From: Vicinamibacteria bacterium
GTDB lineage: Bacteria; Acidobacteriota; Vicinamibacteria; Marinacidobacterales; Marinacidobacteraceae
Reading direction: 5' to 3'
Assembly (NCBI GenBank): GCA_963422395.1
Contig: OY729431.1
Span: 1,824,001 to 1,888,000, forward strand
DNA length: 64,000 bases
The notes below the pieces were generated by a model. The model was given only the letters and a program-made list of their open reading frames with translations, made no database searches and was not told the DNA's origin. Position 1 is the first letter of the stretch. Each line of letters begins with the position of its first letter. Shown here piece by piece: positions 3,731 through 64,000 of this stretch. A program made the position numbers and the translations under genes.

Positions 3731-4495
3731 GTGAGCGTTGTTCGAATCCGCTGGATCCGGGGCGCCGCCGCGCCCGGTTCGCGCCTCTCCCGCGGACTGT
3801 TCCATCTCCTCACCGGGGTATCGCTGGCCGCGACCTTCGCCTTCGCGGCAACCGCGGCTTTCCTGATCGCCTCGGGGAGTGCCGATCCCTCGGCGCCCGA
3901 TCTGACCGGACTCGATCCCGAGACCGCCGCCCGTCAGCTCGAAGCCGTCGGCCTGCGACTGATCGAAGATCACCCGCGCTTCGACGACCAGGTCCCGGCA
4001 GGGCGGATCGCCTTCCAGGAACCGCCGCCGGGGACTTCCTTCAAGCGCGGCCGGTCGGTTCGAGTCTATCCGAGTCTCGGCCCCACCCGCCGTACCGTCC
4101 CGCGGCTCGAAGGGGGCACCCTGACGGAAGCACGCCGGCAGCTGGAGGCGGCCGAACTCGTGATCGGCCGAGTGGCCGAAGTCGAAAGCGACACCTACCT
4201 CATGGGCCGGGTCATCGCCCAGTCTCCGGCCGCCTACAGCGAAGCCCCTCCCGGCGCCGCGGTTTCGGTCCTGCTCTCCACCGGTTCGGAGCCGGAATCC
4301 TTCGTGATGCCCGACTTCATCGGCCGGCGCTACGGCGAGATCGCCGATGCCCTGAGCCGCGCACCGGTGCGGGTGCGGGATGTGCGCCGGGTCGAATACC
4401 GGGGGGTCCCGCGCGGGATCGTGGTGGATCAGACTCCTGCCGCCGGCTCGAAAGTCACCCGCCGCGACGGCATCGTGCTGACGCTGAGCCGCTGA
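3731..4495 (+). CDS. Membrane-anchored protein with three PASTA domains and no kinase domain
   Basis: TM helix, then three repeats of the type PDLTG...Q.P..G (APDLTG, VPRLEG, MPDFIG). Confidence 0.88.
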   Translation: MSVVRIRWIRGAAAPGSRLSRGLFHLLTGVSLAATFAFAATAAFLIASGSADPSAPDLTGLDPETAARQLEAVGLRLIEDHPRFDDQVPAGRIAFQEPPPGTSFKRGRSVRVYPSLGPTRRTVPRLEGGTLTEARRQLEAAELVIGRVAEVESDTYLMGRVIAQSPAAYSEAPPGAAVSVLLSTGSEPESFVMPDFIGRRYGEIADALSRAPVRVRDVRRVEYRGVPRGIVVDQTPAAGSKVTRRDGIVLTLSR

Positions 4496-15461: not shown

Positions 15462-16400
15462 ATGTTCCTTCTCGGACAGCGCCTCGGGAATTACGAGGTC
15501 GAACGAAACCTCGGAAGAGGAACCTTCGGGGCGGTGTACCTGGTTCGGGATGTCTTCCTGCAACAGCGCCGCGCCATCAAGGTCCCGCACGACCAGAGCC
15601 CCGAAGGCCGCGAGGCACTGCTCCGGGAATCGCGGCTGCTCGCCGCTCTGGATCACCCGAACATCGTGCGGCTCATCGCCTGCGACGAACAGCAGGGAGC
15701 TCTCTTCGTGGTCATGGAATGGGTGGACGGCGAGCCGCTCTCCCGCCGCATCGAACACGACGCTCCGCTCGCCGCGGAGGCTGCGCTCCGAATCGCCGTC
15801 GGCGTGCTGTCGGGGCTCGAATACGCCCACCGCCACCGCCGTCTCCTCCACGGCGACCTGAGCGCCGACAACATCCTGCTCTCCTCCGGGGACAGCACCA
15901 AGATCACCGATTTCGGGATCGCCCGCACCGTTCAGGTGGCCGACCACGACGCCCGCTATCTGGGAAACCCGTACTACCTCGCGCCCGAGCAGTTTCGCGG
16001 CGAGGCGGTGTTCGCGTCCGATGTGTACTCGGTGGGGGTGGTGCTCTACCAGATGCTCACCGGAAAGCTCCCCTACTGCGACCCCGATCCAAAACAGCAG
16101 CGCCAGCTCGTCGAGGCCGGGAAAAACCGCCGCCCCCGGAAACGGAACCCCCTGGTTTCGAACGATCTCGATGCCGTGGTGGAGAAGGCGCTCGCACCCG
16201 ATGTCTCCGAGCGCTACGGCTCCGCGGACGGCCTCTTGAGCGACCTCCGGGAGATGGTTTCCTTCGGCCCCAGCCCCGAAGAACTGGCCGCGGTTCGATC
16301 GCGGATCCGCCAGGGGCAGCCCCGAAGACGAAAGGGCTGCTGGCGCTGCGGCCGCCCCCGGCACCCCGACGCCCGGTGCTGCGCCCACTGCGGCGTCTGA
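15462..16400 (+). CDS. Cytoplasmic Hanks-type Ser/Thr protein kinase with C-terminal zinc ribbon
   Basis: LGRGTFGAV, AIK, HGDLSADN, DFG, APE and SDVYS motifs; ends CWRC...CAHC; no TM segment. Confidence 0.9.
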   Translation: MFLLGQRLGNYEVERNLGRGTFGAVYLVRDVFLQQRRAIKVPHDQSPEGREALLRESRLLAALDHPNIVRLIACDEQQGALFVVMEWVDGEPLSRRIEHDAPLAAEAALRIAVGVLSGLEYAHRHRRLLHGDLSADNILLSSGDSTKITDFGIARTVQVADHDARYLGNPYYLAPEQFRGEAVFASDVYSVGVVLYQMLTGKLPYCDPDPKQQRQLVEAGKNRRPRKRNPLVSNDLDAVVEKALAPDVSERYGSADGLLSDLREMVSFGPSPEELAAVRSRIRQGQPRRRKGCWRCGRPRHPDARCCAHCGV

Positions 16401-19888: not shown

Positions 19889-21742
19889 CTATTCGCGGAG
19901 GAAGAGGAAGCCGCGGGCGCGGCCGACGGAGAGCTCGAAGGCGCGGGGGCGGCCTCGGTCGGGGTCCGCAAGACCTGGGAGGAACCGGACCGTGCCGCCG
20001 GGGAAGGAGAAGACCGGCGCCGGGATCGAGGCGGTGGCTTCCCCATCGAGGAAGGCCGGTTCGAGGGACCACGCTCCGCCGTCCTGCCGGTGGAGCGTGA
20101 GGCCGGACCCGGCGCTTGAGCGCACTTCCCAGGCGGCGCCGCCGAGTTCGCGGCAGCGGAAGGTCCCGGTCAGCGGCAGCAGCTCGGCAAGCGGAGGGGT
20201 CCAGGGCTCGACGCGGCGGTAGGGGAAATCCCGCTGGCCCGGCTGCCGGAGGAGGAAGCCGCCCGACCCGTCGGGCCCCGCCGTTCCCGCCGGTTGCGGC
20301 ACGAGGCGCATCTGCCGGCCACCGGCGGAGGCGGTCAGCCACCCGTTCTCCGCCCGCTGGAGCGCGGCCGCGAAACCGTCGCGCACGAGCACCAGCCCCC
20401 TTCCTTCGGAGACTCCGGAACCGTCGCCCGCCGAGGCGGGCTCGATGACGGCGAGCGAGGCGGAAGCGGCCTCCCAGAACCGCCCCGGCGCGATCGGCGG
20501 GTCCGCTGTCGGAACGGCGGGGAGCGAGGGCGCTTCCCGGGGATCGAGCGCCGCTTCGAGGAAGAGATCGGCCACCCGGCGGGCCAGCGCTCCGGCGTCG
20601 GCGTTCGCGGCGTTGCAGAGGACGAAGACGGCGAACTCCTGCTCGGGGAAGCGGAGCGAATGGGTGCGGAAACCCACGAAGCCGCCGCCGTGGGAGACCG
20701 TCGGCAGGCCCCGATACTCGCCGAGCGCGAGGCCGGCGGCGTAGTCCTGAGGCGAACCGTCGGAAAACCGCCCCGGCTCGACGAGCCGCTCGGCGAACCG
20801 TGGGCCGAGCGCCGCCGGATCGAGGAACATCCGTTCCCAGCGCCGCAGATCCTGAATCGTGGTGTAGAGCCCGCCGTCCCCGATCATTTCCAGGGTGGTC
20901 TGGTCGAGCTCGAAACCGCCGTCCGCCTCTTCTTCCGCCCTGCCGTCCCGCGCCTCCCGCTTCGGACGCGGCCGGTAGCCGGCAGCCCGACCGGGGACGA
21001 TCTCCCGGTAGCGGTCGTGGAAGTGGGTCGCCTGCATCCCGAGCGGCTCGAAGAGATGCTCCCCGGCGAACTCCCGCAGCGTCTTTCCCGAGACCCGAGA
21101 GATCAGTCGGCCGAGCAGCCAGTACCCCGAGTTGGAGTAGAGATATTCGGTGCCCGGCTCGAAATTCAGTCGATCGAGCCGGCGGAGCGCTGCCAGCACC
21201 TCGGCGTCGGTGTAGTGCGCGTCGTCGCCGTGGCCGGAGAGGGTCATGACCGCGAGGTAGTCGCGGATGCCGCTCGTGTGGTGGATCAGGTGCCGGACCC
21301 GCACCGGCTCCGCCCAGGCGGGCAGGTCGGGGAAGTGTTTCCGCAGCGGCTCTTCGAGCGAGAGCAGCCCCCGATCTTCCGCCGCCAGCACCGCCGCCGC
21401 GGTGAATTGCTTGGAGACCGAAGCCATGCGGAAGACCGAATCCGGGGTCAGGGGAACCCCGTGGTCGAGGTTCGCCATTCCGTAAGCGTCCCGGAAGACG
21501 AACTCCCCCCGCCGGAGGGCGCCCGCGGCGCAGCCGGGCGAATCCTCGCGGTCCCAGGCGCGGAACACCGCATCGAGATCGGCATCGAGAGTACCCGGAG
21601 TCGGTTGCGGCAGCGGCAGCAGCGAAGCGGGAAGTCCCGGCGGGGGGTGGTGGGCGGAGTTGGAGTTCCAGGCAGCGGACGCCCAGGGCAGCAGGCCGAC
21701 GGCGAACGCGGCGGCGCCGGCGGCCCGGCGGGAACCCGTCAT
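19889..21742 (-). CDS. Secreted serine hydrolase (beta-lactamase/AmpC-like family)
   Basis: Signal peptide; SVSK (SxxK), YSN and HGG motifs. Confidence 0.88.
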   Translation of the reverse strand: MTGSRRAAGAAAFAVGLLPWASAAWNSNSAHHPPPGLPASLLPLPQPTPGTLDADLDAVFRAWDREDSPGCAAGALRRGEFVFRDAYGMANLDHGVPLTPDSVFRMASVSKQFTAAAVLAAEDRGLLSLEEPLRKHFPDLPAWAEPVRVRHLIHHTSGIRDYLAVMTLSGHGDDAHYTDAEVLAALRRLDRLNFEPGTEYLYSNSGYWLLGRLISRVSGKTLREFAGEHLFEPLGMQATHFHDRYREIVPGRAAGYRPRPKREARDGRAEEEADGGFELDQTTLEMIGDGGLYTTIQDLRRWERMFLDPAALGPRFAERLVEPGRFSDGSPQDYAAGLALGEYRGLPTVSHGGGFVGFRTHSLRFPEQEFAVFVLCNAANADAGALARRVADLFLEAALDPREAPSLPAVPTADPPIAPGRFWEAASASLAVIEPASAGDGSGVSEGRGLVLVRDGFAAALQRAENGWLTASAGGRQMRLVPQPAGTAGPDGSGGFLLRQPGQRDFPYRRVEPWTPPLAELLPLTGTFRCRELGGAAWEVRSSAGSGLTLHRQDGGAWSLEPAFLDGEATASIPAPVFSFPGGTVRFLPGLADPDRGRPRAFELSVGRARGFLFLRE

Positions 21743-40463: not shown

Positions 40464-42014
40464 TCAGGCGGGCACGAAGATGCCGTGGAAACCCAGCGGC
40501 AGGGGGTAGCGCAGCCGGCCCACCGCGAGCGGGCCCTCGCCGATGCGCTCGGCGTCGAAAACCGCGATCTGGGTGATCTCCCGGTCGAGGTCCAGCGCGG
40601 TGCCGAGAACCCAGCCGGCCTCCTGCGTCTCTCCTCCGGGGCGGGGCACGAAGATGTGCTCCTCGGGCAGGAAGCGGTCTCCGTAGAAGTGGGTTTCCGC
40701 TTCGCCGGTCGAAAGATCCCAGCGCGCCACCCGATCCAGCCGGCGAGGCAGAGTCCCGGAACGACGGGCCGGGGCGCTCGCCAGGCTATAGACATGGCGG
40801 TGCCGTTTGCCCACCGCGCCGGGATGCACTCGGGGAAACTCCGCCGCCCGCTCGAACAGCTGCTGCTCGACGAGGTCCCCCTCGCCGAGCGCGACCTGGG
40901 CGAGGCGGGTGGGTCCGGTCGGAGCCCGCAAGACGCCGCGCATGACCTCGCGGAAGGTCTCGGTCAGTTCGGTCGCGTCCGGTGCCACACAGTAGTCGAA
41001 CCGGATGGCATCTCCGTCTTCCCAGGCGTTGCCGAAATGGAAGGTGAAGCCCGCCGGCAACTGCCACCACCGCCGGTTCGCGAAGTCGTCCTTGCGCACC
41101 GCGAGTACGCGAGTGCCGAGCTCCGGCCGCCAGACCTGGGCGTCGAGCAAGCTGGCCTCGGGGGACAGCCTCTCGGGGTCGAATACCAGCGGCGGCAGGA
41201 CGAAGACCAGATGGTGGGCGGTAACGGCGAAGTCGTGGACCATGCCGAGCGGAGCGGCGGCGACCTTTCCAACCGCGGCCACCGCGCCCGCCGCATCGAT
41301 TCGGTAGAGCACCAGCAGGCCCCGGAGGAAGTCGTAGCCGAACGCCCAGAGCGTGCCGTCGGGCTCGACCTTCGGATGCGCGGTGAAGGGCGCGCCGATC
41401 AGGTCGTTCCGCCAAACCTTCGGACCCAGGGTTTCCAGGGACTCGGGATCGAGGCGATACGGTGAGCCGGCCTCCCACAGCGCCAGCAGTTCACCCGCAT
41501 GGTGCAGGAGGCTGATGTTCGCGGGGTTCATCGCATCCGGGCCGGTCAGCGGCCGGCCGTCGGCCAGGGGAGTACCGAATCCCGGCCACAGCATTCGTCC
41601 GGCGTCCTGTTCCGCCTGCCGCTTGGCGGTGGCGACGAACCGGCCCCGATGGCGAATCCGGCCGCCGCCCATGGTGAATGCCTGGACCATGCCGTCGCCG
41701 TCGAACCAGTGGTGGTACCGCCGGCCGCCGACCTCATGACCCGCCGGGCCGTTCCGGTAGAAGACGCCGGCGAGTTCTTCCGGCCAACGCCCTTCTACGG
41801 CCAGGTCCTCGTCCCCGAGACTCTCGGCCGCGATCCCCTGCCAGCCGAGCAGGGCGGGATTCGCGGCCCGGGCGGCGTCGAAGTCCTGTTTCCAGCGATC
41901 TCCTCGGGAGAGGCGCCGGGCTCCGGCAGGAAGCGCCCAAAGGGCGCCCGGCAATCCCATCGCACCGATCGCGGCAGCCGCGAGGAACTCTCTCCTCTGC
42001 TTCGGTGCGCTCAT
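40464..42014 (-). CDS. Carotenoid/stilbene cleavage oxygenase (RPE65 family) with twin-arginine signal
   Basis: QRREFL signal; RNGP and HWFDGDG; four His ligands in AHPK, VHDF, FHFGNA and GFHG. Confidence 0.9.
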   Translation of the reverse strand: MSAPKQRREFLAAAAIGAMGLPGALWALPAGARRLSRGDRWKQDFDAARAANPALLGWQGIAAESLGDEDLAVEGRWPEELAGVFYRNGPAGHEVGGRRYHHWFDGDGMVQAFTMGGGRIRHRGRFVATAKRQAEQDAGRMLWPGFGTPLADGRPLTGPDAMNPANISLLHHAGELLALWEAGSPYRLDPESLETLGPKVWRNDLIGAPFTAHPKVEPDGTLWAFGYDFLRGLLVLYRIDAAGAVAAVGKVAAAPLGMVHDFAVTAHHLVFVLPPLVFDPERLSPEASLLDAQVWRPELGTRVLAVRKDDFANRRWWQLPAGFTFHFGNAWEDGDAIRFDYCVAPDATELTETFREVMRGVLRAPTGPTRLAQVALGEGDLVEQQLFERAAEFPRVHPGAVGKRHRHVYSLASAPARRSGTLPRRLDRVARWDLSTGEAETHFYGDRFLPEEHIFVPRPGGETQEAGWVLGTALDLDREITQIAVFDAERIGEGPLAVGRLRYPLPLGFHGIFVPA

Positions 42015-42478
42015 CGTACCGATCCTCCCGAGCGATAGATCAGTTCGGCGTCGGTCGAGACCGTCTCGCCGGCGGCGGACACCTCGACCGCCGCCTGCTC
42101 GAAATCCGGCGGCCCGAACCGCCCATCGGCACTGCGGCTGAAGCCGAAGCCCTCGGTGGGGAAGTCGTGGAAGTCGGTGTCCAGCTCATCGTTGCCGTTC
42201 TCGTCGTGGAAGACCGCGACCGCGTAGCGGCCCGCCGGCAGGTCGGTGAAGACGAACCGGAGCACCCCGGGGGCGGCCCTCCTCCAATGCGCGGCCACCG
42301 CAGCCTCGGCATCGGGGAAGTCGTCCGCGCCGGCCTGGTGGTGGAGAGCCGCCATCACTCTCCCGGAATCGTGCGCGACCGAACGCACGGTGACCTCCAG
42401 GTCATCGCCGAATCCGGGCGGCGCTGCCGCCAAGATCGCCAGGGCGGCGGAAAAGAACGATGTCGTGATCTTTGGCAT
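42011..42478 (-). CDS. DUF2141 family secreted protein
   Basis: Signal peptide; GRYAVAVFHDENGN.LD...P.EG.GFS...FGPP.F motif. Confidence 0.88.
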   Translation of the reverse strand: MPKITTSFFSAALAILAAAPPGFGDDLEVTVRSVAHDSGRVMAALHHQAGADDFPDAEAAVAAHWRRAAPGVLRFVFTDLPAGRYAVAVFHDENGNDELDTDFHDFPTEGFGFSRSADGRFGPPDFEQAAVEVSAAGETVSTDAELIYRSGGSVR

Positions 42479-42530
42479 CAGGGATCTCCTTCGGAGGTTT
42501 GCGAAGAGATTGGAGAGAGGATCGCGGCGG

Positions 42531-43733
42531 TCAGCGCGGAAAAGAGAAGCCGATATCCACCGAGAACAGCACGAGCGTCGGATCTATCGTCGAACTCCAG
42601 GTGGTTTCCACGAGGGTCTTCGGATCCGAAACGAGGGTGCCCAAGTCGAAAAGGATCGTCATGTCCGTGGTGAGGGGCGGGCCCCAGACGACATCCACCC
42701 GGGGGCGAATCAGGAACCGGCCCCTGCGGAACCCGAGACTCAGGGAGCCGGTATGCACGAGATGGCTCCGATCGGCTTCGAACACGAACTCCGCCACCGT
42801 GATCGGGGCCCCCTGGGCCGCCAGCTCCGCCTCCAGGTCGGAGATCAGGGCGCCCGACTGCAGATCGTCGGTCAGGTCGTCGGTGGCCCGAATCCATCCC
42901 GTGCCGAAGCCGATTGCGAGCTCGACGGCCCCGTCCCGGAAGCGAAAGGTGCGCAGCGCCGAGGCCAGCACGAGGTCGGCGCGGGAAGAAACCGAGCTCT
43001 GAACCGCCCCCATCGATACCCCGAGAGAGGCGGTTTCCGGGGAATCCTGGAGGAGCTCCGACGGGGTGAGATCGGGACTTCGGAGCACGAAGTAGCTGCC
43101 CTCGAAGCCCCAATTCCCATAGAGCAGCCGTGTCCCCGCGCCCCCGCCGAACTCCCGGCTCCAGCGGGAATCCGAGACGGAATCCGTGTCCAGCTCGGAA
43201 CCGGCTCGCGCGCTGATGGAGTCGGTGGCGGACACCTGGAGCAGGGACAGTCCGCCGCGCCCGAAGACTTCAGCGCGGAAGCGGGGCGGCGGGATCATCT
43301 TGGCAGCGGTCGAGATCGTCTCGCCGCCGGTCGGTATCTCGACGGCCGCCTGCTCGAAATCCGGGGGGCCGAACAGGCCCTTCGCGCTGCGGCTGAAACC
43401 GTAGCCCTCGATCGGAACACCGAAAAAGTTGGTGTCCAGCACCCCGTTGCCGTTCTCGTCGTGGAAGACCGCGACCGCGTAGCGGCCCGCCGGCAGGTCG
43501 GGAAAGAGGAAGCGGAGCACTCCGGGAGCGGCCTTCATCCACTGCGCGGCCACCGCACCCTCGGCATCGGGGAATTGCTCCGCACCGGCCTCGCGATGGA
43601 GGGCCGCCATGACCCTTCCGGAATCGTGCGCGGCCAAACGCACGGTGACCTCCAGGTCATCGCCGAATCCGGGATGCGCTGCCGCCAAGACCGCCAGGGC
43701 GGCGGAAAAGAACGATGTCGTGATCTTTGGCAT
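42531..43733 (-). CDS. DUF2141 domain fused to a predicted outer-membrane beta-barrel
   Basis: N-terminal ~142 aa paralogous to 42011-42478; C-terminal ~255 aa with amphipathic strands ending VLFSVDIGFSF-PR. Confidence 0.75.
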   Translation of the reverse strand: MPKITTSFFSAALAVLAAAHPGFGDDLEVTVRLAAHDSGRVMAALHREAGAEQFPDAEGAVAAQWMKAAPGVLRFLFPDLPAGRYAVAVFHDENGNGVLDTNFFGVPIEGYGFSRSAKGLFGPPDFEQAAVEIPTGGETISTAAKMIPPPRFRAEVFGRGGLSLLQVSATDSISARAGSELDTDSVSDSRWSREFGGGAGTRLLYGNWGFEGSYFVLRSPDLTPSELLQDSPETASLGVSMGAVQSSVSSRADLVLASALRTFRFRDGAVELAIGFGTGWIRATDDLTDDLQSGALISDLEAELAAQGAPITVAEFVFEADRSHLVHTGSLSLGFRRGRFLIRPRVDVVWGPPLTTDMTILFDLGTLVSDPKTLVETTWSSTIDPTLVLFSVDIGFSFPR

Positions 43734-59020: not shown

Positions 59021-59207
59021 TACCCCCTTTCACGAATTGGTGACTCAGAAACCGAACTGCTGCCGGGGCAGCGAGTTCGGATTCCCGGCGCGCAGCGCCG
59101 GGCGCTTCGGGAGCGGGGCGTCCTCCCTCCTCCCCCGAGAACGCCCGACGCCATCCTGACGCCCCGCTCCCCGGAGCGCTCGGTCGATGGGCCTATCATC
59201 GACCCCC

Positions 59208-60686
59208 ATGTCCGAGACCGACTACCGGGTCCCGCCGCTATCGCTTCTCCTTCTACTGCTGCTCCTTTCTCTCGGACCTGCACCTCGGCATGCACTCGGG
59301 CTTGCCCCCCAGTCTGGAATTCAACTTGCCGCCGGCGGCACCGCAATCCTCTCGGAGCAATCCGCTGCCCCCCCTTCCGAGGCGCTCGCTCACGAGATCA
59401 CTGCGCTCGCCGAAGCGGCGCTCGAGAACCACCCCGCGCCGGGCCTGTCGATCGCCGTTGCGCAGGGCGGCGAGATCCGCTTCGCTGGCGGCTTCGGCTA
59501 CGCCGACCTCGAACACTCGGTTCCGGCGGCCGAAAACACGGTGTACCGGATCGGCTCGGTGACGAAGCAGTTCACTGCCGCCGCCGCGATGCTGCTCGTC
59601 GAGGAGGGAAGGCTGGACCTCGCCGCCGACCTGCGCGAGTACCTGCCGGAATACGACACCGGAGAGTTCGCGGTCTCGGTGGAACGGCTGCTGAACCACA
59701 CTTCGGGGATCAAGGGCTACACCGAAATCGAGGAGTTCTGGGAAACCTCCCGGCTCGACCTCGGACATGAGGCGATGATGGAGATGTTCGGCGCCGCGCC
59801 GTTCGAGTTCGAACCGGGAGACCGCTACCAATACAACAACTCTGGGTACTACCTCCTCGGAGTCATCGTCGAACGTCTCTCGGGCCACAGCTACGCGGAG
59901 TTCCTCGAAGAGCGGTTCTTCTCTCCGCTAGGCATCGAACGCACCCGCTATCTCGAAAACGACCCTATCGTTCCCGGGCGCGCCGCGGGATACGAGCTCC
60001 GGGAGGGGGGCGGGTTCGAGAACGACGCCCCGCTGAGCATGCGCGGGCCGTACGCCGCCGGCGCGCTCGGCGCGAGCGTCCTGGACCTGCTCGCCTGGCA
60101 GCAGGCGCTCGTCGGCGGCGAGGTGGTGAGCCCCGCCGGCTACCGGCGGATGAGCGCGCCGGGAACACTCGCGAACGGCGATCCGGTCCCCTACGGGTAC
60201 GGACTTTCGCTGGGCGAGGAGCACGGGCTCGCCAAGGTCTCCCACGGCGGCGGGATCAACGGGTTCCGCGCCCGGCTCTCCTGGTATCCGGAGGTCCGCC
60301 TCGGCATCGCGGTGCTCATGAACGCCGGCTCGGGGCGGCCAGGGCTGCTCGAGAACCGGATCGCACGCGCCACTCTCGGCATGGAACAGCCACAGGTGGT
60401 GGAGACCCCGGTTCCAGCAGAGGAACTCGAACGCTGCGCCGGAATCTTCGATCCGGGCCGTGCCCCGGTGACCGTCCGCTTCGAGAACGGAGCGCTCTTC
60501 GGCTTCGGCCAGCGGCTCGTCCCGGTGGGCGGCGGCCTCTTCCATCCCGAGGGGGATCCGTTCACCGCCATCCACTGCGAACCGGCGCCCGCAGGGACAC
60601 TGTCACCGTCCCTCGCGGTGACCACCGCCGGAGTCTCCGTGCGATACCCCCGGTCTCGGTCCGAGCGCTCCGGAAACGGGGCGTGA
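59208..60686 (+). CDS. Secreted serine hydrolase (beta-lactamase family)
   Basis: Signal peptide; SVTK, YNN and HGG motifs. Confidence 0.88.
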   Translation: MSETDYRVPPLSLLLLLLLLSLGPAPRHALGLAPQSGIQLAAGGTAILSEQSAAPPSEALAHEITALAEAALENHPAPGLSIAVAQGGEIRFAGGFGYADLEHSVPAAENTVYRIGSVTKQFTAAAAMLLVEEGRLDLAADLREYLPEYDTGEFAVSVERLLNHTSGIKGYTEIEEFWETSRLDLGHEAMMEMFGAAPFEFEPGDRYQYNNSGYYLLGVIVERLSGHSYAEFLEERFFSPLGIERTRYLENDPIVPGRAAGYELREGGGFENDAPLSMRGPYAAGALGASVLDLLAWQQALVGGEVVSPAGYRRMSAPGTLANGDPVPYGYGLSLGEEHGLAKVSHGGGINGFRARLSWYPEVRLGIAVLMNAGSGRPGLLENRIARATLGMEQPQVVETPVPAEELERCAGIFDPGRAPVTVRFENGALFGFGQRLVPVGGGLFHPEGDPFTAIHCEPAPAGTLSPSLAVTTAGVSVRYPRSRSERSGNGA

Positions 60687-62068: not shown

Positions 62069-62842
62069 ATGCGGAAGCCGACTCGCCGCCATTCCCGCGC
62101 TTCCACCCCGCTTTCCCCTCGCGACCGCGTGCCCCGGCCCCAGGCGCTGCCCCTCCGGACGCCGGGCTATCCTCGCCGCGCCCCGAAGCGGCGCCGCCTG
62201 CTTCCCGGGGATACTCCCGCTGAACGCCTCTTCGAGAACGGCGCCCGCTCACTCACCAACGCCGAACTGCTCGCGCTCGTGCTCGGCTCGGGCACCGACG
62301 AAGTCGCCCGCCGGGTCCTCCGGGAAACCGGCAGCCTGGCGAGGCTCGCCCGGACGCCGCTCGGCCAGATCGCGCGGTTTCCGGGCTTGTCCCCAGTCCG
62401 AATGGGGCGGCTGGCCGCCGCGCTGGAGCTCGGCCGGCGCGGGGTCTTCCCCTCGGACGGCCGCGTCCCCTGTTTCCAGAATCCGGCAGAAGTCGCGCGC
62501 TATCTCCTCTCCCGGTACGGAAACCAGGAAGTCGAAGAATTCGGAGTGCTGCTGCTCGACGCGCGGGGATGCCTGCTGCGGGCCGAAATCATCTCCCGGG
62601 GTTCCCTCACCGGAGCTCCGGTCCATCCCCGCGATCTCTACCGGGTCGCAGTCACCCACCAGGCGGCCTCGGTGGTGCTGTTCCACAACCACCCTTCCGG
62701 AGACCCGAGGCCGTCGAAGGCCGACCAACACCTCACCCGGAGGCTCGTGGAAGCGGGAGAAGTGATGGGCATCCCGGTGCTCGACCATCTGGTGATCGGC
62801 GCGGGCCGATGGCACAGCTTCGGCGAAAACGGACAGCTCTGA
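62069..62842 (+). CDS. radC: RadC/JAB domain protein (start uncertain)
   Basis: P.ERL..GA..L..AELLA, AALELGRR, HNHPSGDP.PS..D and LDHLVI motifs. Confidence 0.92.
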   Translation: MRKPTRRHSRASTPLSPRDRVPRPQALPLRTPGYPRRAPKRRRLLPGDTPAERLFENGARSLTNAELLALVLGSGTDEVARRVLRETGSLARLARTPLGQIARFPGLSPVRMGRLAAALELGRRGVFPSDGRVPCFQNPAEVARYLLSRYGNQEVEEFGVLLLDARGCLLRAEIISRGSLTGAPVHPRDLYRVAVTHQAASVVLFHNHPSGDPRPSKADQHLTRRLVEAGEVMGIPVLDHLVIGAGRWHSFGENGQL

Positions 62843-62845
62843 AGC

Positions 62846-63322
62846 TCAGTCGTCCCGGCAACAGCTCCGACAGACGCCGTAGAGCTGGTGTCGATGCCAG
62901 ACCAACTGGTAGCCGTAGGCAGCAGCGATCTCCTCCTGACGCTCCTCGACCTCGGGCGAGAGGAACTCGTCGATCCGCCCGCAACGGACGCAGATCAGGT
63001 GATCGTGGTGGGCGCGGGAAAGCGCCGGCTCGAAACGGGTGAGCCCGTCCTTCAGAAAGATCGAGGAGGCGATCCGGGCCTCGCAGAAGAGCCGCAGTGC
63101 GCGGTACACCGTGGTGCGGCCGATCGCGGGGTCCGCTCCCCGCACTTCGGCGTGCACATCGTCGGCGGAGACATGCCCCCCCATCCCGAGGAACCGCTCG
63201 AGGATCAGGTCCCGCTGGCGAGACTTCTTGAGGCCCCGCTCATGCGCGAACTCCCGCAGCCGGTGGAAAGCCTCTTCGCGCATCGAGTCCGCGCTGGGCA
63301 GCGCGGGAACGGAAGTGCTCAT
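62846..63322 (-). CDS. Fur-family transcriptional regulator
   Basis: QR..IL, TVYR.L, HHDHLICVRC and LYGVCRSC motifs. Confidence 0.92.
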   Translation of the reverse strand: MSTSVPALPSADSMREEAFHRLREFAHERGLKKSRQRDLILERFLGMGGHVSADDVHAEVRGADPAIGRTTVYRALRLFCEARIASSIFLKDGLTRFEPALSRAHHDHLICVRCGRIDEFLSPEVEERQEEIAAAYGYQLVWHRHQLYGVCRSCCRDD

Positions 63323-63504
63323 GACGGAACAAAGTCCCGCACCCTGATTCGGTCCGCGCGCGGGGAAACGGCGCGGCCGAGGATATCCCTTCTCGGTTTG
63401 GACATGTTGGCCGCGCCTCTTCTGCCCCGCCGGGGTCGGGGGCGCCTACCGACGGCTCGGTGTTCTTCGCCGCTGCGGGGAGCGCTCCCTTAACATGCTT
63501 TTCT

Positions 63505-63678
63505 TCAGCGTTCTTCGAAATTCCGCTTCGCTCCCAACGCGAGCAGAATGTCTGCAGTGGAGCCCCATGCCAAGTCGAGAGGAGTCGCCCCCTCGGGGGC
63601 TGCGTTGAAGCGTGGATTCCCCTTGTACTCGACCGGGACCTCGACCGGGGCGTTCAAATCCGCGCCCGCTTCCACCAT
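63505..63678 (-). CDS. 57-aa ORF: variant copy of the ankyrin protein C-terminus
   Basis: MVEAGADLNAPVEVPVEYKGNPRFNAAPEGATPLDLAWGSTADILLALGAKRNFEER; its ATG overlaps the upstream TAA (TAATG). Confidence 0.6.
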   Translation of the reverse strand: MVEAGADLNAPVEVPVEYKGNPRFNAAPEGATPLDLAWGSTADILLALGAKRNFEER

Positions 63679-63862
63679 TACCTCCAGGATTTTTCGAAAT
63701 TCCGCTTCGCTCCCAACGCGAGCAGAATGTCTTCTTCGTAGAACCCTGCCAAGTCGAGAGGAGTCGCCCCCTCGGGTATACGGTTGCGAAGGTCCCCCCC
63801 CTTGTACTCGACCGGGTACTCGACCGGGGCGTTCAAATCCGCGCCCAGTTCCACCATTACCT
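63514..63862. repeat. Tandem direct repeat, 2 x 170 bp (63514-63683 and 63693-63862), period 179 bp
   Basis: Manual gap-free alignment; 28 mismatches clustered in 13 codons. Confidence 0.92.
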
Positions 63863-64000
63863 TGAACATAGACGCTAACGACTCCTGCGAGCAGGGTGTC
63901 GAGAGAGCCGAGTTCGTGTCTCTAATCTGAAATCTCTCAGCGGGTGGTGTGACAACAGCTACCGCTGCGGCATGAAGCGGCGTCATGCCTAAGTTATTCC
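63678..64000 (-). CDS. Ankyrin-repeat protein, 3' part (5' end outside window)
   Basis: NNLGMTPLHAAA, ELGADLNA and GATPLDLA...ILLALGAK ankyrin motifs; frame open to the window edge; lower GC than neighbours. Confidence 0.85.
   Translation of the reverse strand, partial: NNLGMTPLHAAAVAVVTPPAERFQIRDTNSALSTPCSQESLASMFKVMVELGADLNAPVEYPVEYKGGDLRNRIPEGATPLDLAGFYEEDILLALGAKRNFEKSWR

Follow-up and report, generated by a model that had tools for sequence, protein, structure and literature searches.

Tandem ankyrin-type units at the end of a Vicinamibacteria gene share a nucleotide-identical framework and differ in blocks of replacement codons

The last ~500 bases of a 64-kb stretch of DNA from a Vicinamibacteria bacterium (assembly GCA_963422395.1, contig OY729431.1, positions 1,824,001 to 1,888,000; hereafter the window, in whose own numbering all positions are given) contain a tandem direct repeat with a period of 179 nt, whose coding strand is the minus strand and which lies at the 3' end of an ankyrin-type gene. 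The two copies, termed A and B, are identical to the nucleotide over most of their codons and differ in a few blocks where every altered codon changes the residue. We tentatively favour, at a little short of an even chance, the explanation that copies A and B are consecutive ankyrin-type units of ~60 residues from a single acquired protein, similar to repeats with high internal conservation (HIC), and that they are now offset by one base. Below, we describe the pattern of differences and the reading frames at the junction of the copies, and then weigh this explanation against several others.

A repeat search returned the tandem as two families, 63503-63597 versus 63682-63776 (95 nt, 87%) and 63619-63683 versus 63798-63862 (65 nt, 94%). 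When the copies are compared codon by codon on the coding strand, they share a gapless core of 170 nt (63693-63862 in copy A, 63514-63683 in copy B) that contains 28 mismatches, giving 83.5% nucleotide identity over 170 nt (blastn) and 75% amino-acid identity. All 28 mismatches are confined to 13 of the 56 codons, all 13 of these alter the residue, and the number of silent differences is zero; the other 43 full codons are base-identical. These figures agree exactly with those in an initial annotation of this DNA, which had reported a gapless 170-bp repeat with 28 mismatches in 13 codons, all of them replacements, and 43 identical codons. The copies and the four sets of differing residues within the core are as follows:

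63684-63862, minus strand: repeat copy A, a 179-nt unit made up of the 170-nt core (63693-63862) and a 9-nt diverged tail (63684-63692).
63505-63683, minus strand: repeat copy B, made up of the core (63514-63683) and a tail (63505-63513) with a TGA stop; annotated as a 57-aa open reading frame (ORF), 63678-63505 (P0002).
63846-63848 in A and 63667-63669 in B, minus strand: variable codon 1, Leu CTG versus Ala GCG (L/A), directly before G-A-D-L-N.
63816-63818 in A and 63637-63639 in B, minus strand: variable codon 2, Tyr TAC versus Val GTC (Y/V), within a 12-nt mini-repeat.
63777-63797 in A and 63598-63618 in B, minus strand: variable block 3, GDLR-N-RI versus NPRF-N-AA, of which the central Asn codon AAC alone is kept.
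63732-63746 in A and 63553-63567 in B, minus strand: variable block 4, GFYEE versus WGSTA, immediately after the TPLDLA helix.

The 9 nt that follow the core (63684-63692 versus 63505-63513) form a fifth diverged block, with 5 of 9 bases shared. Across the copies, identical runs of 14-40 nt have replaced blocks of 2-21 nt between them, and five codons differ at all three bases. In the two large blocks the copies agree at just 5 of 21 and 7 of 15 bases, and these blocks are therefore essentially unrelated rather than diverged sequence. Chance is excluded as the cause of the clustering: when 28 mismatches were placed at random on 168 nt, they fell in 13 or fewer codons in none of 200,000 trials (minimum 16), and only 0.53% of 20,000 simulations of 28 random substitutions were free of any purely synonymous codon change. 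These results uphold the earlier argument that neutral decay after a duplication could not give such a pattern. The bases at the mismatches (A8 T8 G8 C4 in copy A; C10 G7 T6 A5 in copy B) likewise bear out the statement that neither copy is an adenine-specific template for the other of the kind used by diversity-generating retroelements (DGRs).

Two local features of the repeat are described here in their own right. The mini-repeat that holds variable codon 2 is a tandem pair of CCGGTCGAGTAC encoding PVEY-PVEY, at 63804-63827 in copy A and 63625-63648 in copy B; in copy B the first TAC reads GTC, identical to the neighbouring Val triplet, and the change at these two bases may have been templated locally. 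At 63794-63801, where the largest variable block begins in copy A, the plus strand carries C8 (G8 on the coding strand, AAG GGG GGG GAC), and the matching position in copy B reads AAG GGG AAT CCA. The length of this G8 run is liable to both slippage and sequencing error, and a +1 change would shift the remainder of copy A to frame B.

The junction between the copies brings together two reading frames, and the features needed to follow them are listed here:

63678-64000, minus strand: ORF A, the ankyrin-type gene running off the window, with 106 aa visible in the frame of 63998; it ends ...LALGAKRNFEKSWR at the stop TAA 63680-63678.
63682-63693, minus strand: junction between the copies, read as K-S-W-R-stop in frame A and as K-I-L-E followed by V-M-V-E-A-G-A-D-L-N in frame B.
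63690-63694, minus strand (T5 on the plus strand): A5 run, the sole place where ..N-F-E-K of frame A can enter I-L-E-V-M-V-E.. of frame B.
63676-63680, minus strand: TAATG overlap between the stop TAA of ORF A (63680-63678) and the start ATG of ORF B (63678-63676), with GGAGG 2 nt before the ATG.

The spacing of 179 nt is not a multiple of 3, which puts copy B in frame -1 with respect to copy A. No stop interrupts frame B within copy A, and this frame has no ATG, GTG or TTG upstream of 63678. At the junction it reads E-F-R-K-I-L-E-V-M-V-E-A-G-A-D-L-N-A-P, which resembles a consensus ankyrin second helix, and KILEVMVEAGADLN, in copy B's frame and starting upstream of the ATG, fits the ankyrin helix-2 consensus. 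Position 63693 is both the end of the frame-A sense (..A-K-R-N-F-E, with the same bases in either copy) and the start of the frame-B sense. The switch from one frame to the other is therefore pinned to the A5 run, which is among merely 10 A/T runs of at least 5 in the 64 kb. One extra A in this run, or a -1 slip, fuses the ORFs into ...L-A-L-G-A-K-R-N-F-E-K-I-L-E-V-M-V-E-A-G-A-D-L-N..., that is, into two consecutive 60-residue units in one protein. As assembled, with a period of 179 nt, the units are not in one frame and this one additional base is needed.

Searches of the PDB with phmmer point to the same junction. The 65-aa frame-B translation of 63702-63508 had matches at E<=10 to 156 different PDB sequences (best 1.5e-4), almost all of which are designed ankyrins, with the best stretch at residues 4-19, whereas the 57-aa ORF B alone had 4 matches (best E 0.16); the corresponding part of copy A, taken together with the residues that precede it, had 26, centred elsewhere. 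Since the number of matches rises from 4 to 156 on adding them, the eight residues encoded upstream of ORF B's ATG are predicted to complete an ankyrin helix. The TAATG overlap noted in the initial annotation is present, and is simply the Val-Met codons of the repeated unit (GTA ATG) read one base off. The frame offset, the fifth diverged block and the ankyrin sense of frame B over the junction are new relative to that annotation.

The public annotation of 63505-63869 holds just two small proteins, of 63 aa (P0012) and 57 aa (P0002). ORF A appears there as its 63-aa version alone, with its start at ATG 63869 and beginning M-F-K-V. The part upstream of this start, N-N-L-G-M-T-P-L-H, is in no annotated protein, yet aligns to an ankyrin homologue.

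The assignment of the gene to the ankyrin family in the initial annotation has indirect support. Both the G-x-TPL and the G-A-D-x-N motifs show similarity to proven ankyrin proteins. Searches of the PDB returned ankyrin and designed-ankyrin chains, with a best E of 2.6e-5 for the 106-aa ORF and 1e-6 for a 67-aa unit, and the stretch Y-K-G-G-D-L-R-N-R-I-P-E-G-A-T-P-L-D-L-A-G-F aligns to the inter-repeat loop and first helix of such chains. An exhaustive search of representative proteins gave 11 matches, comprising 9 large multi-repeat ankyrin proteins, ORF B itself and one false positive, and the ten best ESM-Atlas matches carrying a family were all of the ankyrin family or clan (scores 0.95-0.97). 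On the other hand, ORF A scored 17.4 bits against Pfam Ank, below the cut-off of 21.1, in a match covering residues 4-12 (G-M-T-P-L-H-A-A-A) alone; the 65-aa frame-B translation reached E 0.13, and ORF B and the 63-aa and 67-aa versions gave no match to this family at E<=10. AlphaFold2 models had a mean confidence (pLDDT) of 46.2 from the single sequence and 56.6 from an 11-row alignment (helices at 38-50, 80-84 and 88-94); a Foldseek search of the PDB with a low-pLDDT model gave no match at E<=0.001, its top rows being ankyrin proteins at E>3. The sequence similarities support an ankyrin-type protein. The false positive, P0001 (4736 aa, 102 bits), was the top match of the representative search; it has fibronectin-type-III-like repeats and matched only via the low-complexity stretch V-E-Y-P-V-E-Y-K-G.

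The best relative of ORF A is P0010, a 594-aa protein with ankyrin and TPR repeats (Pfam Ank 9.8e-19), which aligns to residues 4-98 of ORF A with 34% identity over 99 aa (E 4e-10). This homology covers residues 4-98, so the coding sense reaches upstream of the annotated start of the 63-aa protein. P0010 has the long-loop unit twice, at 144-187 and 407-461, inside a long in-frame ankyrin protein. A second homologue, P0003 (1511 aa), has 14 nearly identical ankyrin units of 67 residues, compared at the protein level only; its variation is concentrated just before T-P-L-L, 7-9 residues past it, and at the matching positions of the second half-unit, and at the protein level it looks like a textbook HIC array. 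It may be noted in passing that copy A and the second unit of P0010 share R-IPEGAT-LD-AGF, and that copy B and the first share E-A-G-A-D and G-x-P; the scores do not separate these pairings, which are not relied on here.

Beyond these relatives, searches for the framework itself returned little. A collection of 5.8 billion protein sequences, searched in the length bands of 31-100, 58-186 and 187-2000 aa, gave no other protein with this framework; a search for a full-length form of ORF A gave nothing at 187-2000 aa and the 63-aa annotated piece alone at 58-186 aa, and the exact 106-aa and 102-aa forms of ORF A are absent from the protein collection. The one match in a scan of genome contigs was a distant ankyrin locus of 26% identity, L001, whose ankyrin protein of 229 aa is of an ordinary kind, and the plasmid collection gave no match to the ankyrin gene. 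Within the 64-kb window, blastn-short and tblastn found no third copy, and no template for the variable blocks was found elsewhere in it, with 10-12-nt chance matches only. The initial annotation had asked for a search for further cassettes, a reverse transcriptase or a recombinase: none was found in the window, where 61 ORFs scanned with Pfam included no reverse transcriptase, integrase or recombinase.

The base composition changes exactly at the end of copy B. From 63500 to the end of the window the GC content is 0.54-0.61 against ~0.70 for the window, and the GC content at third codon positions is 0.66 in the ankyrin ORF against more than 0.8 in neighbouring genes. These lower values make the ankyrin gene look acquired, and suggest a horizontally acquired segment whose far boundary would lie beyond the window.

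In the account that we favour, each unit would run from a second-helix/G-A-D-L-N segment through a long loop to G-A-T-P-L-D-L-A and a short helix pair, with both units at the C-terminal end of one repeat protein. Recombination or gene conversion between the copies would keep the framework identical, including its silent sites, while a few surface positions would be held different by selection or brought in from other alleles. Homogenisation plus selection of the HIC type can in principle explain silent-site identity together with saturated differences at selected codons. One base would be missing from the A-run at the unit junction (179 nt in place of 180), as a real deletion or an assembly error; the protein would consequently stop at K-S-W-R, and the second unit would be left as a 57-codon ORF that is at most re-initiated at the TAATG. 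The annotated 63-aa and 57-aa ORFs would then probably be pieces of one larger frameshifted repeat gene. We infer here that an in-frame unit is the ancestral or true state, that homogenisation and selection are the cause of the pattern, and that the variable residues contact a ligand.

Whether these residues lie on the binding face of the ankyrin fold was examined using position numbers of designed ankyrin repeat proteins (DARPins), applied via the alignment of ORF A to designed ankyrins. The varying positions include what we take to be the equivalents of DARPin positions 26, 33, 13 and 14. In contrast, the residues at what are presumably positions 2, 3 and 5 (P, E and A here), just before or within G-x-TPL, are the same in copies A and B. 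Of the seven residues in the largest block, four belong to a part of the long loop insertion that resembles G-x-D-x-x-N. The earlier proposal that the variable residues form the target-binding face thus finds agreement at the first group of positions and not around G-x-TPL, and a location on that face is plausible, though only partly supported.

Several observations weigh against two units of one protein. The units are not in one frame as assembled, and the in-frame state is supplied by us. Most of the 20 other listed homopolymer runs lie in ORFs that read through, several with Pfam matches on both sides; because these runs show no obvious frameshifts, a sequencing error at the A5 run is not especially likely, and if the frameshift is real, copy B would be a dead remnant. 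The unit may also have been 179 nt long from the outset, should the tandem have been joined within the A-run itself; the conservative differences of frame B from the M-F-K that precedes copy A (M/I, F/L and K/E) would then be due to chance (1-2% by a rough estimate). No more than two units are visible, and what precedes copy A is not a third one. Neither the deposited annotation nor the protein searches hold a long protein at the locus, and the gene may be broken further upstream too. Finally, homogenisation would have to proceed via identical runs of 14-40 nt, which are short for RecA-type conversion.

These points leave room for other explanations. The initial annotation had seen in copy B a silent donor or translationally coupled cassette. 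As a silent donor, an unexpressed or weakly coupled copy B would pass its variable blocks to the expressed gene through segmental gene conversion, or through deletion between the direct repeats, as in pilE/pilS or vlsE. The order of an expressed gene followed by a partial copy, with conserved 14-40-nt segments interspersed with replaced blocks of 2-21 nt, is what such a donor might look like; alternation of this kind resembles a minicassette organisation, and copy B, being out of frame, is outside the main product. However, there is one cassette only, with no other copy in the 64-kb window and no other framework protein in the three length bands of the collection; ankyrin sense in frame B precedes the ATG, where it would be superfluous for a donor; direct repeats recombine chiefly by deletion, which is irreversible; and no recombinase was found in the window. 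With the TAATG explained as Val-Met codons read one base off, the cassette proposal is not supported and we consider a silent donor unlikely. Two separately translated small ankyrin-like proteins (at least 63 aa, and 57 aa), as TAATG-coupled paralogues kept alike by gene conversion and differing in ligand-contact residues, we judge to be unlikely as well. Both P0012 and P0002 are predicted proteins in the public record, each from one contig of 2,908,270 bp, the stop/start overlap permits re-initiation, and AGGAG lies 12 nt upstream of ATG 63869. Nevertheless, the P0010 homology of ORF A begins upstream of the annotated 63-aa start, ORF B would start halfway through a helix, the first part of which is encoded in this frame upstream of the ATG, and its GGAGG is merely 2 nt from that ATG. 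A lone ankyrin unit of 1.5 repeats is unlikely to fold by itself, and the structure models were poor (pLDDT 46.2 and 56.6). A more far-reaching proposal, to which we give a rather low probability, is a minimal recombinational specificity switch in a free-living high-GC bacterium, in which an expressed C-terminal unit and an adjacent alternative unit of an ankyrin-type binder would exchange blocks, or be fused or deleted, via the 14-40-nt framework segments. This would amount to a natural DARPin-like library of two or a few states, in which the A-run or the G8 run might act as a gate, and would follow neither a DGR nor a known cassette route.

The remaining explanations concern the origin of the differences or of the tandem itself. 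A DGR template/variable pair is ruled out by the non-adenine base spectrum, and a reverse transcriptase was not found in the window. A new targeted diversifier that is not adenine-specific and rewrites codon blocks, or a distant template for which both copies are variable repeats, could account for 28 mismatches in replacement codons against 0 silent ones, and for five fully changed codons that do not easily come from point mutation and selection. It is very unlikely given the other evidence: the 61 ORFs scanned include no reverse transcriptase or other diversifier, the mismatches have no base specificity, a common DGR template would require runs of ~12 adenines, and the window holds no templating sequence for any block, while two copies yield no mutational spectrum. 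The tandem could also be an assembly artefact in which a single unit, present as two strain variants or paralogues, was assembled in tandem. The locus is hypervariable and repeat-bearing, and repeats of the HIC type are described as hard to assemble (PMC13449251). Here, however, the tandem has its own junction sequence, which is not expected from strain bubbles, its identical runs of at most 40 nt are spanned by ordinary k-mers and reads, and the contig of 2.9 Mb has intact genes around it; we regard an artefact as highly improbable. A programmed -1 ribosomal frameshift at G-AAA-AAT, yielding a short product from A only and a long one from A and B, would need a shift of exactly -1 on an A-run where the Lys tRNA could re-pair, which is what the junction offers. 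But the site reads C-GAA-AAA-T, without the canonical X-XXY-YYZ heptamer and with a preceding GAA that cannot re-pair, and the 111 nt that follow are predicted to form no stable structure: their folding energy is -34.2 kcal/mol (z = +1.08), and 170 of 200 shuffled sequences were at least as stable. We regard this explanation as very improbable.

The rest of the window is ordinary chromosome of ~70% GC, with fmt, rsmB, rpe, grpE, dnaJ, alaS, argS, metH, pyruvate kinase and bshC among its genes. A Fur-family regulator gene (62846-63322) lies on the same strand as copy B, 182 nt downstream of it, and a RadC-like gene converges on the regulator gene. Promoter and terminator scans of 62700-64000 gave 0 and 0 sites; because no promoter- or terminator-like site scored between them, the ankyrin ORFs and the fur gene could be co-transcribed. 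Across the whole window, Rfam and ARAGORN found two tRNAs and nothing else.

Three other groups of genes in the window were recorded along the way. An RPE65-family carotenoid oxygenase gene is followed by two adjacent same-strand DUF2141 paralogues of 155 and 400 aa (40464-43733). A 254-aa protein with three PASTA domains and no kinase domain (3731-4495) sits after rsmB, in the same frame past a stop, and a Ser/Thr kinase protein without PASTA domains (15462-16400) lies 11 kb away. The window also encodes two proteins of the serine beta-lactamase family (PF00144), one of 617 aa at 19889-21742 and one of 499 aa at 59187-60686, the second with an N-terminal signal-like leucine run.

If copies A and B are indeed units of one ankyrin-type protein, its framework would be frozen to the nucleotide while its binding residues are free to change, and the locus would be a compact bacterial case of a mode of repeat evolution for which fungal immune receptors are the better-known example, without a visible context of NOD-like receptors (NLRs). 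With its two units, it would be a simple system for studying how homogenisation can go along with diversification, and which targets such binders recognise. For annotators it would carry the caution that the small 63-aa and 57-aa ORFs are probably parts of one frameshifted repeat gene. Should the cassette or switch explanation be true instead, a binding protein would here be varied by a programmed mechanism of a new kind.

Among known systems, HIC repeats offer the closest point of comparison. One report (PMC4986451) describes HIC ankyrin, WD40 and TPR repeats of fungal NLRs with hypervariable, positively selected positions on the concave face, including five selected positions in an ankyrin locus, on inner helices and the hairpin/loop. 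A second source defines HIC repeats by a similarity coefficient of at least 0.7 between tandem units and notes them in other taxa including bacteria (PMC13449251). The NLRs that carry such repeats are known from Podospora and further fungi, with reports from Actinobacteria and Cyanobacteria as well. The pattern is attributed to concerted evolution by unequal crossing-over or gene conversion, combined with diversifying selection and the shuffling or exchange of repeats (PMC4986451, PMC13449251). A further source, on conflict systems, concerns DGR-linked and module-acquiring effectors rather than nucleotide-identical repeats, and is not used here (PMC7159879). The 83.5% nucleotide and 75% amino-acid identity between copies A and B agrees with this high-identity definition, and their variation is confined to a few replacement positions in 13 of 56 codons. 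Unlike HIC repeats, the units described here number two, are of ~60 residues rather than canonical 33-residue ankyrin repeats, are one base out of frame as assembled, and differ in whole blocks of up to 7 residues rather than at single positions; in contrast to HIC NLRs, there is no NACHT or NB-ARC domain in the visible part of the gene.

As in a DGR, a second copy of a gene's 3' end follows directly behind it, with differences limited to particular codons, but these differences are not at template adenines, the window has no reverse transcriptase, and the target is not a C-type-lectin or Ig fold. Silent-cassette antigenic variation, as in Neisseria pilE/pilS, Borrelia vlsE/vls and Treponema tprK, involves many donors and surface antigens of host-associated pathogens. 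What they have in common with our locus is a partial copy behind an expressed gene, in which the framework is conserved and the variable segments are replaced, whereas here there is one copy, of ankyrin type, in a high-GC housekeeping context and with coding sense over the junction. The likeness to DARPin libraries lies in an identical framework with varied surface positions, and both the frame-B junction helix and G-A-T-P-L-D-L-A align to DARPin chains; unlike these libraries, the sequence is natural, and its variable set coincides only partly with what are presumably the randomised positions, with three around G-x-TPL constant. Lastly, the transcription activator-like (TAL) effectors are bacterial tandem repeats that are nucleotide-identical save for their specificity codons, the repeat-variable diresidues. 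Copies A and B are in the same way nucleotide-identical except for a few codons, while TAL repeats have another fold, many units and two variable residues per unit, and are in frame.

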